From: a virus
Taxonomy: Duplodnaviria > Heunggongvirae > Uroviricota > Caudoviricetes
Length of the DNA stretch: 64,000 nucleotides
Virus record (IMG/VR): IMGVR_UViG_2675903278_000002
Strand: one strand, 5' to 3'
The notes under the pieces are model-generated. The model worked only from the letters and a program-made list of their open reading frames with translations. It did not search any database and had not been told where the DNA came from. The position numbers and the translations under genes were made by a program. Shown in pieces: positions 21,015 through 22,963 of the stretch (positions are counted from its first letter, which is position 1; the number at the start of each line of letters is the position of its first letter).

Positions 21015-22118
21015 ATGAAAAATAGCTTTGACAGAGCACGCGCTGCGGAGAACACCTCAAAAGAGGCGATAGAGTATCTCGAAAGAGCATCTCAAATGCA
21101 GGCCGTTATGATCTCCCAGGTCAGCAATGACATGAGATTCTCGGACGCATTCATGTTATTCACTCGCTTATCTCTGCTGATAACCAGACGTCGGCCAGAG
21201 ATCGCTGTTCATTGTATTTTGATACATGTTTTGCCGCACATTGCCGATGTAAAAGTAAGTGACATTAATAGGTTCATGGTGAACCAACTGGTCAACCCAC
21301 TAATACTGGATGGCAAAATTGTTATGGGCCGCCGCGTTTTCTCTCTGATGAAGCAGTTCCTTAGCTGGTGCGCCTTCCAGGGGATGATAGACGTGTCACC
21401 GTTAAACGATATGTCACTTAACAAAGTTGCCGGTGGCGCAAAGCCCACACCTCGCGAGCGGAAGCTGACCGACGCAGAGGTATGGGTGTTCTGGAATATA
21501 TGGGACTACTTCAATGTGTGTGCTGGTACAAAATGGGCGGCCAGGCTATGTCTTGTATCCGCAAGACGACCTGACGAAGTACTGCGGGCTAAAAAAAGTG
21601 AGTTCAATCTTAAGCGTGGGGTTTGGAATCAAGGCAAGAGGAACAAATCTGCCCGTGAGCATTCTCTGCCTTTAAGCTCATTAATGCGCACTTGTATTGA
21701 AGAGTTGTTCGAATATGGTAAAGACAGCCAGTGGCTCGTGCCTTCGAATAAAAAAATCGGGAAAGACCTTCCTATGTCTAAAGTGGCAATAGCCCAGGCA
21801 TTACGTCGTATTCTGGAACGACCAGAACTGATGGAGCTTGAGCCATTTACACCCCGAGATTTGCGCCGTACTGCGCGTAGTTACTTCCCAGCATTAGGCA
21901 TAAGCCAGGAGGTATCACGTAAAATCATGAACCACAGTCTTGAGGGGATAGATCGGGTCTACGACCGGCACGATTATATGGACGAGATGCGAGACGCCTT
22001 AGAAAGTTTCTCGACGTACATCGCATCAATCGTAGAGCAACCGGATTTAGACGAAATTGACCACAAATTTAAGGGAGATCGTCTATCAACAGAGCTTATT
22101 CGTGTAAATTTTTCATAG
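21015..22118 (+). CDS. int: Tyrosine recombinase (integrase or plasmid multimer resolvase)
   Basis: C-terminal catalytic signature with conserved Arg, His-x-x-Arg and Tyr (PRDLRRTARSYF, HSLEGIDRVYDRHDY); 367 aa. Confidence 0.8.
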   Translation: MKNSFDRARAAENTSKEAIEYLERASQMQAVMISQVSNDMRFSDAFMLFTRLSLLITRRRPEIAVHCILIHVLPHIADVKVSDINRFMVNQLVNPLILDGKIVMGRRVFSLMKQFLSWCAFQGMIDVSPLNDMSLNKVAGGAKPTPRERKLTDAEVWVFWNIWDYFNVCAGTKWAARLCLVSARRPDEVLRAKKSEFNLKRGVWNQGKRNKSAREHSLPLSSLMRTCIEELFEYGKDSQWLVPSNKKIGKDLPMSKVAIAQALRRILERPELMELEPFTPRDLRRTARSYFPALGISQEVSRKIMNHSLEGIDRVYDRHDYMDEMRDALESFSTYIASIVEQPDLDEIDHKFKGDRLSTELIRVNFS

Positions 22119-22499
22119 AGACTTTATGGCCTCAACAACCTTTTGTGATGCGCCTTTCTCTTTACCGAATCGCTCGTTATATGCAGCAAGAACCTGTTTT
22201 TCGTCCTCGTTAAGAGGAGCAGTGCCTTCTTTGTATAAAAATGCTGCGAGTTCGGGTTGGCGTTCTTCCAGCACCATCATCATAAGACGACTTGGCTCAA
22301 TGCCCAGTGCCAGCGCCAGCGGACGAACCTTATCGATAGGCAAAGGAATTTTGCCGCTTTTAATTAAAGAAAGGTTGTTGGCGTTTTTATACCCAATTGT
22401 TTTGGCTATCTGGGCCTGGCTCATAGGTGAGGATTCAATCAACCCTGCGATAAAAGCAGCGTAGCGACTTTCTATAAATTCAATCTTGTTATCAGACAT
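22113..22499 (-). CDS. XRE-family helix-turn-helix transcriptional regulator (putative repressor)
   Basis: HTH motif SQAQIAKTIGYKNANNLSLIKSG; convergent with the recombinase gene; divergent AT-rich intergenic region upstream. Confidence 0.65.
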   Translation of the reverse strand: MSDNKIEFIESRYAAFIAGLIESSPMSQAQIAKTIGYKNANNLSLIKSGKIPLPIDKVRPLALALGIEPSRLMMMVLEERQPELAAFLYKEGTAPLNEDEKQVLAAYNERFGKEKGASQKVVEAIKSL

Positions 22500-22750
22500 G
22501 GTTACAACCTTTGCGCGTTCAATTCTCTCTGGTAAGTGCTTACCGATATTACATCAAAGGTTAGGGTTGTAAAGCTATTATCATTTTTTTCGATAGGCAC
22601 TTAAAAGACCGGTTAAAGGCCATTGCACGGAGAAAAATTAGCCCAAAATAGGTAAGAAAATCAACTTGCATATGATATGAATGTATTCAGTATTGATACA
22701 AATTTTAGTAGTATTCCTTACCATAGTATAAGTTAGAATGGATTGATTGA

Positions 22751-22963
22751 ATGAACACCACTATTTCCAGCCTAATCGCTCTTGAGATCGGACACGTACA
22801 GAAATTAGCTGATGAGTGTGTAGCTGACATCCTCACCGATCTACCGAATGAGCAGATTCAGGTTGGTGTGAATGACACAACTGGATTTATATTCGAACTT
22901 AACAACAAACGCTTCACGCTTCTCAATACCGGCTCCGGGTCTTTAGCCGTCAGAATCTGTTAA
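22751..22963 (+). CDS. Hypothetical small protein divergent from the XRE regulator
   Basis: 70 aa ORF; no recognisable motif. Confidence 0.3.
   Translation: MNTTISSLIALEIGHVQKLADECVADILTDLPNEQIQVGVNDTTGFIFELNNKRFTLLNTGSGSLAVRIC

Follow-up and report, generated by a model that had tools for sequence, protein, structure and literature searches.

In the 64,000 nucleotides (nt) of the IMG/VR virus record IMGVR_UViG_2675903278_000002 (Caudoviricetes) that were analysed here, referred to below as the window, three open reading frames (ORFs) form a compact block. These comprise int, which encodes a tyrosine recombinase, a gene on the opposite strand for a helix-turn-helix (HTH) regulator of the XRE type, and a small ORF divergent from the latter (Table 1). 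The 3' ends of int and the XRE gene overlap by 6 nt (22113-22118), with each stop codon complementing the last sense codon of the other gene, while the XRE gene and the small ORF are separated by a spacer of 251 bp (22500-22750) with a GC content of 33.9 %, compared to 45.6 % for the window. The convergence of the regulator on the recombinase gene with overlapping 3' ends, and its divergence from a small plus-strand ORF across an AT-rich region of about 250 bp, had been proposed in an earlier analysis of the letters alone (the sequence-only reading), and both are borne out at the positions given there. The two most informative elements, a LexA box at the int promoter and a lox-like palindrome, are located upstream of the interval flagged in that reading and were overlooked by it.

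Table 1 Features of the int-XRE-small ORF block and related sites, as positions in the window
Feature	Position	Strand	Basis
TAAGTNCTTA family, fourth member (GTAAGTACTTAC), upstream of holin-like gene	4284..4293		motif search
lox-like palindrome AATGATTCCATAC-CTACTAT-GTATGGAATCATT (13-7-13), candidate core site of the adjacent recombinase	20884..20916		
int promoter, TTGATC (-35), 17-nt spacer, TAATAT (-10)	20941..20969	+	read from sequence; consensus and conservation
LexA (SOS) box TACTGTTTACTTATACAGTG, from the last base of the -10 hexamer, covering the expected transcription start	20969..20988		
int, tyrosine recombinase ('integrase'), 367 aa	21015..22118	+	Pfam PF00589, phrog_1
XRE-type HTH regulator, 128 aa, candidate non-cleavable prophage repressor	22113..22499	-	phrog_8, AlphaFold/Foldseek
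14-bp perfect palindrome GGTAAGTGCTTACC, candidate XRE operator, at about +1 of the XRE promoter	22531..22544		inside the most conserved spacer block
XRE promoter, TTTACA (-35), 16-nt spacer, TAATAT (-10)	22546..22573	-	promoter scan; both hexamers invariant (9-sequence alignment)
Candidate rightward promoter region for the small ORF	22668..22735	+	second conserved spacer block; no confident hexamers assigned
Small ORF, 70 aa, phrog_2627 (8.8e-41, no assigned function), first gene right of the switch	22751..22963	+	
Conserved 12-bp stem-loop between the small ORF and CobT-like gene	22976..23008	+	folding z-score -3.1
TAAGTNCTTA family, second member, in the spacer of promoter TTGAAA-N17-TATTAT	36121..36130		
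TAAGTNCTTA family, third member (GATAGGTAAGTGCTTATCTAT), upstream of nrdA, in the spacer of TTGATA-N17-TAACAT	46558..46567		

The 2.5 kb surrounding this block are 98-99 % identical to Escherichia phage Cyrano (pLF82; 98.8 %) and to approximately 190 E. coli plasmids of ~110 kb, with the window corresponding to positions 24,111-85,330 of Cyrano, while Klebsiella phage-plasmids share ~74 % identity over the recombinase gene. The window can therefore be placed, on the basis of its identity to Cyrano and the E. coli plasmids, in the SSU5/pHCM2/pMT1(/pKpn) phage-plasmid supergroup, members of which replicate as plasmids during lysogeny (PMC7969092). The DNA of the region was matched by 612 plasmid records, and tblastn comparison with the XRE protein yielded 865 plasmid records, nearly all with a 'site-specific integrase' under the same match. 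The order of int, XRE (on the opposite strand), the small ORF and a CobT-like gene is retained in Cronobacter, Enterobacter, Salmonella pHCM2, Yersinia pMT1, Citrobacter, Klebsiella, Kluyvera and Buttiauxella, and the overlap between int and XRE is always 6 or 9 nt (14 loci in nine genera). Acinetobacter phage-plasmids retain XRE, the small ORF and the large downstream gene, but their recombinase is different. Because of the 865 plasmid records and the constant overlap of 6 or 9 nt, the layout of the three ORFs is not a product of chance.

The Cyrano ortholog of XRE, CYRAN_45 (100 % identical at the protein level), is annotated as a 'putative repressor' and is among the few genes transcribed in the lysogen, at ~10-fold over background, while ciprofloxacin gives rise to 39-fold more Cyrano virions (PMC9928086). 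Mitomycin C induces other SSU5-like elements, a family so far found to be 'exclusively extrachromosomal' (PMC9600943), and inducibility is on record for both E. coli and Enterobacter members. No account of an SOS route to the switch, of the maintenance of lysogeny or of the role of the recombinase was found in the literature searched. The system was already half-annotated as regards its repressor, and the conserved LexA box, the lox-like site, the operator family, the natural deletion in SSU5 and a convergence with phage P1 are added here. In E. coli, Klebsiella, Salmonella Typhi (pHCM2), Enterobacter and Yersinia pestis (pMT1), phage-plasmids of the SSU5 type rank among the most common of the large non-conjugative plasmids; quinolones and mitomycin C induce them, and their cargo includes resistance and virulence functions.

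The LexA box and the lox-like palindrome at int

The int promoter scores 8/12, below the 9/12 threshold of the promoter scanner, and is hence not listed by the latter. Its hexamers show a column identity of 0.97 among ten genera or lineages, compared to 0.82 for the promoter spacer. The LexA box TACTGTTTACTTATACAGTG is the only CTGT-N8-ACAG in the 64 kb (TACTGT-N8-ACAGT being expected 0.03 times) and matches the consensus TACTG(TA)5CAGTA at 16/20 positions, with a perfect core. When ten lineages are compared, the -35 and -10 hexamers and both LexA half-sites have column identities of 0.94-0.97, as opposed to 0.76 for the 8-nt spacer between the half-sites. The position of the box is constant in E. 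coli, Cronobacter, Enterobacter, Salmonella, Yersinia, Kluyvera and Klebsiella, with spacers that differ by genus (TTACTTAT, ACAAACAT, TTATACGT, TCATGCAT and ATATAAAC), and in Citrobacter a symmetric variant, CTGG..CCAG, takes the place of the LexA core.

Published strand-specific RNA sequencing (RNA-seq) data are available for Cyrano (GEO GSE154648), and are given here as means on a log2 scale, listed successively for LB, medium 1 h, medium 6 h, macrophage 1 h and macrophage 6 h. The mRNA of the int ortholog (5.6, 7.9, 6.1, 8.9, 10.3) parallels those of host umuD (4.1, 5.4, 4.8, 8.2, 8.9), sulA (7.3, 7.2, 6.1, 8.4, 9.9) and dinI, as well as that of a LexA-boxed UmuD'-like gene of Cyrano itself (7.2, 9.7, 9.1, 11.3, 12.2), in the same samples, this being a correlation over five conditions. 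According to the published study, macrophages impose an SOS-inducing stress. It is highly probable that LexA controls the int promoter, a conclusion which is well supported though correlative.

Genome-wide scans of Cyrano, pHCM2 and SSU5 revealed exactly one other strong LexA box per element. This precedes the UmuD'-like (HumD-like) gene in Cyrano (89275-89700, a region outside the window), and an 88-aa phrog_2100 gene in pHCM2 (9625-9926) and SSU5 (88009-88309). The two genes are unrelated and each is missing from the other lineage. Because the second LexA-boxed gene differs between lineages in this manner, the int promoter (P_int) appears to be the one promoter under SOS control that is retained throughout the family. 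The 88-aa phrog_2100 protein could be a small SOS-induced antirepressor. No LexA box was observed in the spacer between XRE and the small ORF, and inspection of the LexA box at int revealed no credible leftward promoter resembling P2coi of phage P1.

The recombinase matches the Pfam Phage_integrase family (PF00589; 40.6 bits, cut-off 27.1) and phrog_1 'integrase' (4.8e-47). The motif residues R185, K211, R284, H307 and Y316, assigned by motif inspection, are invariant in eight orthologs, with R281 replacing the usual first His. It is 99.2 % identical to the Cyrano Int ortholog at the protein level, and the amino acid identity across genera (83-86 %) is far above that of its neighbours. The lox-like palindrome, given as lying 46 to 14 nt upstream of the int -35 hexamer, has arms which are perfect in every locus examined (column identity 0.99-1.00, compared to 0.81 for the 7-nt spacer). 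Among the relatives, the spacer is found both ways round (CTACTAT/ATAGTAG and CTATTAA/TTAATAG) and also as TTGGTAG, and five copies of the 12-mer arm occur in the window against 0.00 expected. The palindrome always adjoins the recombinase gene, save in K. michiganensis, where ISKox3 separates it from int. Core sites of the lox/FRT type consist of 13-bp arms and a spacer of 6-8 bp. On balance, conservation and architecture incline towards the 33-bp palindrome being a lox-like recombination site of Int.

Neither an integrated copy nor an excisionase or an arm-binding domain was found, and the recombinase therefore probably acts in the manner of Cre, in multimer resolution or cyclisation, rather than as a chromosomal integrase. 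No chromosomal copy was present among the 612 plasmid records matched by the DNA of the region, the 865 matched by XRE or the genome contigs, the complete ones all being replicons of ~100-120 kb. Likewise, no xis-like ORF was found among the ORFs of the window, and residues 1-70 of Int gave no Pfam match to an arm-binding domain. An integrase which alternates the element between chromosomal and plasmid states would accord with the grouping of Int with phage integrases by Pfam and PHROG, with the need of an excising prophage for SOS-induced int, and with two protein clusters whose longest contigs reach 0.9-1.1 Mb. Given that the 612 and 865 plasmid records and the complete contigs are all ~100-120 kb replicons, that the family is exclusively extrachromosomal in the literature (PMC9600943), and that neither an excisionase gene nor a Pfam arm-binding match accompanies a site which is a simple symmetric palindrome and not a complex attP, such an integrase is very improbable. 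A second alternative concerns the palindrome itself, which may be an operator for a regulator of the surrounding divergent promoters, or a structural element. In Cyrano, pHCM2, Citrobacter and Cronobacter, its neighbours are int on one side and a very highly expressed divergent gene on the other, lone arms are dispersed through the genome in the manner of regulator binding sites, and flips of the spacer would be neutral for an operator. However, the arm length and spacing fit core sites of the lox/FRT type, the palindrome remains beside the recombinase even where the divergent gene has been replaced (in this window and pMT1), and it is unlike the palindrome at the XRE promoter, making an operator or structural role the less probable assignment by some distance. 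As a Cre-like recombinase acting on the 13-7-13 palindrome, Int would resolve plasmid multimers or circularise incoming DNA. It was rejected as a homologue of Cre (hhalign probability 0.3 %), and neither Int nor an Int profile gave a sequence match in the PDB. As regards the long contigs, these are found in protein clusters P0031 (XRE, Citrobacter; 0.90 Mb) and P0070 (small ORF, Klebsiella; 1.14 Mb) and may represent misassembly, a cointegrate or a rare integration; for the cluster with an 897-kb contig, a look-up gave plasmid contexts only.

Exact lone arms are also found away from int, at 16363-16382 (+), 17375-17394 (+) and 26928-26947 (-), with the arms themselves given as 16364, 17376 and 26935, and occupy orthologous positions in pHCM2 and SSU5. 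The first and last of these form identical inverted 20-mers (AATGATTCCATACATCTCAT) located 10.5 kb apart, with one copy at the start codon of a small CYRAN_38-like ORF and the other inside dnaE, near codon 84. Inversion of the 10.5-kb segment between them was rejected, with the predicted junction present in 0/194 matching plasmids. A break of homology at the exact position of the palindrome, when relatives are compared, was similarly discarded, as ~25 bp to its left (TTCAAAAAA...) are common to several lineages. The region from the glutaredoxin gene to the palindrome (about 18400-20880) is a cargo hot-spot. A YafO toxin gene and an upstream 202-aa ORF occupy it in this window, while pMT1 has the caf1 F1-capsule operon there. 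Both PhiR41 and a Citrobacter metagenome contig carry chaperone-usher fimbriae at this place, together with an AraC regulator, K. pneumoniae carries microcin immunity, and Cyrano the divergent gene that is very highly expressed (723-fold over background).

XRE, its candidate operators and the small ORF

The XRE protein matches phrog_8 'transcriptional regulator' (1.3e-11), while its match to Pfam HTH_19 (19.7 bits) falls below the cut-off of 30.2. Its AlphaFold model is all-helical, with eight helices and a predicted local distance difference test (pLDDT) score of 80.3 overall and about 90 over residues 11-90. The best Foldseek matches of this model are C-proteins, HigA, Stl, SinR and a Salmonella phage repressor, with a probability of 1.00 for C.BclI, C.AhdI, HigA, SinR and others. 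The model predicts a five-helix HTH domain of the XRE/Cro-C1 type, and the earlier designation of the minus-strand ORF as an XRE HTH regulator can be retained on the strength of the phrog_8 match and the model, with the Pfam match remaining sub-threshold. XRE orthologs share 56-69 % identity, with a nearly invariant recognition-helix region (GYKN.NNLSLIKSGKIPLP). No C-terminal S24 peptidase domain with a cleavage site was found in XRE, which has no PF00717 match, comprises 128 aa and is all-helical. XRE is predicted to be incapable of self-cleavage, and in the absence of an S24 domain SOS induction would therefore need another input. A role in a toxin-antitoxin or defence system was not evident, with the neighbours being divergent or convergent, none co-transcribed, and PADLOC giving two marginal HTH matches (E = 0.0048). 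The PADLOC and NCBIfam scans otherwise returned nothing useful, and a sequence search of the PDB with XRE gave no match.

Alignment of the spacer in nine relatives revealed one strongly conserved block (22527-22576 in the window), which incorporates the XRE promoter and the palindrome GGTAAGTGCTTACC. This palindrome occurs 30-34 nt upstream of the XRE ATG in 14/14 loci and belongs to the TAAGTNCTTA family, the core of which is found at four sites in the window against 0.35 expected, a count that was reached by 0/100 shuffles. The promoter at the 36121 site has the consensus TTGAAA-N17-TAT(T/A/C)AT across relatives, and both this and the 46558 site are kept in Cyrano, pHCM2 and SSU5, despite flanks that are only 74-80 % identical, or 74-79 % at 36121. 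CYRAN_56, which is located downstream of the 36121 site, is up ~20-fold in parallel with the small ORF in the Cyrano RNA-seq data. The TAAGTNCTTA sites have the geometry that would be expected of a repressor with dispersed operators, and the position of one of them at the XRE promoter suggests that XRE may be the protein which reads them. The proposal that XRE is a candidate to bind a recurring palindrome family has thus gained a specific motif.

The sequence-only reading had also called for an operator search in 22500..22750. That search was successful at the XRE promoter, where the palindrome appears to be the only robust operator candidate in the spacer, but not at the rightward promoter, for which no solid operator was found in the E. 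coli lineage. The motif GGTAAG/CTTACC is enriched four-fold in the spacer (four half-sites). An operator array composed of these was rejected, since the two distal half-sites (22651 and 22717) are lost in PhiR41, a 94 %-identical relative, and only the palindrome was retained as a candidate.

Two further repeat families are dispersed through the window. The motif AAGAAAACAAnTTGTTTAA (6882, 10649, 37266, 48997, 59219 and 59948) includes six exact AACAAnTTGTT cores against 0.14 expected, all of which are intergenic. The copies are located 28-47 nt before plus-strand start codons, and a variant near 23031 precedes the CobT-like gene. It could be a middle/early-promoter element or a translational operator, and was discarded as an XRE operator, being a different motif that is absent from the XRE promoter. 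AT-rich imperfect palindromes (ATAAGTAAGTA...TACTTAT) occur at 9864, 13310, 16823, 32596, 41878 and 51278 with variable arm spacing. They were likewise rejected as operators, as the variable arm spacing and the frequent presence of a T-run give them the appearance of AT-rich terminator hairpins.

The candidate rightward promoter region contains the block TGATATAGAT..TATTGATACAAT-AGGTAGTA in most genera, which is weaker and rearranged in the E. coli lineage. The small ORF protein is 43-57 % identical across genera and is modelled as a helix-strand-helix and a four-strand domain (α/β; pLDDT 91.6), for which no informative structural neighbour was found. The fold is not HTH, winged-helix or ribbon-helix-helix, and thus provides no indication of a Cro-like second repressor. 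Comparison with the known antirepressors Coi, Ant/KilAC, Bro-N and Tum gave no Pfam, NCBIfam or PADLOC match (Coi 0.5 %).

Between medium 6 h and macrophage 6 h in Cyrano, the mRNA of the small ORF rises from 6.0 to 10.8, while that of the CobT-like gene directly downstream stays at 4.0 to 5.9. The stem-loop between these two genes is kept in nine relatives, including SSU5, where it lies at the deletion edge. It has two compensatory pairs and no U-tract, and the Cyrano RNA-seq signal falls ~29-fold across it. The stem-loop may gate the entry of transcription into the CobT/CobS/DnaE operon, such that the rightward promoter would drive the 70-aa protein and transcription would then be kept out of these early replication genes. 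The XRE mRNA climbs with that of the small ORF over the same interval (7.5 to 9.9), and their joint rise is what is expected of a negatively autoregulated repressor under partial inactivation.

Probable lysogeny control and candidate routes of the SOS signal

A natural deletion of the block is found in SSU5, which is described as virulent (PMC5427195). It carries the CobT-like gene and lacks XRE and the recombinase. Its collinearity with the window extends to 17655, where tRNA-Asn ends, and resumes at 22964, one base past the small ORF. Relative to pHCM2, its closest lysogenic relative (94.9 % identical where the two share DNA), the largest gap in SSU5 spans 7.5 kb and ends at the small ORF, with other differences of at most 2.2 kb, and RepA, ParA and ParB are retained. 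The deletion fits a requirement of the block for lysogeny, and is supportive rather than clean evidence.

The locus had been proposed as a lysogeny/plasmid-state switch. Lysogeny control is supported by the expression of CYRAN_45 in lysogens and the absence of the block from SSU5, but alternation between integrated and plasmid states finds no counterpart among the complete contigs, which are all plasmid-sized. The conserved features make it likely that the 128-aa XRE is a prophage repressor and that the module is a lysogeny-control/plasmid-housekeeping block. As a whole, the locus is best explained, with reasonable confidence, as a lysogeny-control and plasmid-housekeeping module with an SOS input at the recombinase promoter. 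The repressor, rightward, Cre-like and LexA parts of this explanation draw on conservation, published expression and the SSU5 deletion, while the antisense coupling described below is inferred.

During lysogeny, LexA would shut P_int, while XRE would be made from its own promoter and limit itself by repression through the 14-bp palindrome at the transcription start. XRE would also hold down the rightward promoter, along with a few further promoters bearing the same palindrome. Upon DNA damage, LexA would be cleaved and P_int would fire, yielding more recombinase for RecA-generated multimers or replication products. Because of the tail-to-tail overlap and the lack of a conserved terminator between the two genes, int transcripts must run antisense through the XRE gene, and DNA damage might in this way weaken the uncleavable repressor. 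The only terminator-like hairpin downstream of int, on the plus strand inside the XRE gene (22339-22355), was rejected as an int terminator as it is broken in a 94 %-identical relative. A lowering of repressor output by head-on int mRNA, through collision and/or duplex RNA, which would tip the dispersed-operator network towards lysis, is a tentative proposal and an unlikely one as matters stand. From macrophage 1 h to macrophage 6 h, int moves from 8.9 to 10.3, XRE from 10.3 to 9.9 and the small ORF from 8.7 to 10.8 in Cyrano. Were the proposal true, the recombinase gene would double as the SOS trigger of the lysis-lysogeny switch across the supergroup, with neither repressor cleavage nor a dedicated antirepressor. 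This would constitute a new connection between SOS and a phage switch and would explain the invariant tail-to-tail overlap.

Several observations weigh against the proposed module and its coupling. The XRE mRNA is positively correlated with that of int over the five conditions and is ~5-fold higher in macrophage 6 h than in medium 6 h, so that strong transcriptional interference is not evident, and no Cyrano virions are produced in macrophages although int is high (PMC9928086). In K. michiganensis CP124761.1, ISKox3 (~1.3 kb) lies inside the LexA-box spacer and parts the palindrome, the promoter and the left LexA half-site from int, yielding a natural P_int knockout, and the plasmid persists. 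A firm operator at the rightward promoter is missing in the E. coli lineage, where 2/4 GGTAAG half-sites are unconserved, and the TAAGTNCTTA palindromes persist in the XRE-less SSU5, so that another protein could read them. About a dozen other small segments also differ between SSU5 and pHCM2. Finally, the recombinase has no detectable similarity to Cre beyond the superfamily, and a simple lox model leaves the lone palindrome arms elsewhere, including that inside dnaE, unexplained.

The SOS signal may instead arrive by another route, through an antirepressor or protease from the element, a co-resident prophage or the host, with the overlap representing compact gene packing and LexA control of int merely raising resolvase or cyclisation activity upon RecA multimers or at the start of the lytic phase. 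This falls only slightly short of an even chance. The joint, non-reciprocal rise of the XRE and int mRNAs accords with it, as do the second LexA-boxed gene in each lineage (the 88-aa phrog_2100 protein of pHCM2 and SSU5 being a possible small antirepressor), a 'putative phage antirepressor family protein' encoded by SSU5, and the precedent of P1, where a promoter serving the antirepressor gene coi is under the control of the LexA site next to lox. Yet the second SOS gene is not common to both lineages, that of Cyrano is UmuD'-like although E. coli and Enterobacter members are inducible, no LexA box occurs in the XRE/small-ORF spacer, and 14/14 loci preserve the tail-to-tail overlap. It has also to be considered whether XRE is only a local autoregulated regulator, for instance of the small ORF, the recombinase or cargo, with the true repressor encoded elsewhere, for example by a gene of the CYRAN_114/SSU5_121 type. 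The single robust XRE-proximal operator, the lack of a clear rightward operator in the E. coli elements, the survival of TAAGTNCTTA sites in SSU5, the annotation of several other small regulators, and the merely 'putative' annotation of the Cyrano repressor are all compatible with this. It is nevertheless unlikely, considering that SSU5 keeps its other regulators and is described as virulent, that XRE is among the few lysogen-expressed genes (PMC9928086) and is universally conserved beside the early replication operon, and that the XRE and small-ORF mRNAs climb together, which fits shared, negatively autoregulated control. With the module read as one of lysogeny control and plasmid housekeeping, the generic label of 'putative repressor' is extended to a wiring diagram with base-pair predictions, which include the LexA box, the 14-bp operator family, the 33-bp site and the gating stem-loop.

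Elsewhere in the window, a shared translation-initiation context, (A)GGAAAAACACATG, is found at seven gene starts (12093, 26674, 37766, 41992, 49031, 59969 and 63343). Repeat units of the types TACAGTGGATA and ATCCACTATAG, located between 38868 and 40806, flank and overlap a minus-strand repA-like gene (39303-40358) and are probably iterons. One of these units (40806) resembles a weak LexA-like match.

Comparison with known systems

Non-cleavable phage repressors that are inactivated by SOS-induced antirepressors are known from Salmonella phage SPC32H (Rep; PDB 5D4Z), the Gifsy phages, N15 (AntC) and 186 (Tum), and N15 antirepressors are on record for phage-plasmids. These repressors, the LexA-controlled integron integrases, the convergent promoters of phage 186 and the λ OOP RNA each have one feature in common with the module and serve as leads. 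As in these SOS-inducible temperate phages, the module features a short HTH repressor with no peptidase domain, and 5D4Z is among the structural matches of the XRE model. It differs in that no family-wide conserved LexA-controlled antirepressor was found, and in that the small ORF has neither a LexA box nor similarity to known antirepressors. Convergent or antisense switches include pR/pL interference in coliphage 186, the λ OOP RNA, which is antisense to cII and reported to be LexA-sensitive, and prgQ/prgX of pCF10. In each of these a lysogeny or repressor gene faces an opposing transcript, as would be the case here, with the firing of one promoter lowering the output of the other, and λ OOP likewise ties an antisense RNA to LexA. 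However, the opposing transcript in the present locus would be a full-length recombinase mRNA originating from ~1.5 kb away, and the RNA-seq levels are not reciprocal.

The integron integrase gene intI is reportedly under LexA control (Guerin et al., in 2009). Both systems share a LexA box over the promoter of a tyrosine recombinase, a recombination site (here a candidate) just upstream, and highly variable cargo beyond that site. In contrast to integrons, no attC-like cassette boundaries were found here and the extra arm copies do not flank cargo, while the ~25 bp to the left of the palindrome are semi-conserved, so that the cargo junction is not at the site. No IntI-specific family match was obtained for Int in Pfam or NCBIfam.

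The nearest analogue is phage P1, which the module resembles in logic without being homologous to it. The P1 annotation runs in the order c1, coi (encoding a 69-aa C1 inactivator), lox, a LexA site over promoter P2coi, cra and cre, with C1 operators genome-wide. Each is a plasmid prophage whose repressor is refractory to RecA-mediated cleavage (as predicted here for XRE), with operators or candidate operators scattered over the genome and a gene of ~70 aa beside the repressor gene. In both, a site with 13-bp inverted arms for a tyrosine recombinase, known in P1 and putative here, adjoins the immunity region, and a LexA site lies between this and the recombinase gene; Cyrano also has a Cra homologue. 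No homology was detected by hhalign between the small ORF protein and Coi (probability 0.5 %), XRE and C1 (0.15 %) or Int and Cre (0.3 %), and the operators of P1 are asymmetric 17-mers, compared to the 14-bp palindrome observed here. Furthermore, the LexA-controlled P2coi of P1 points away from cre, to the antirepressor, whereas in the present module the LexA-controlled promoter drives the recombinase gene, which is convergent on and overlaps that of the repressor. A P1-like logic thus appears to have arisen with unrelated proteins, in that a repressor which is not cleaved is combined with dispersed operators, a small partner protein and a lox-type site next to a LexA box.

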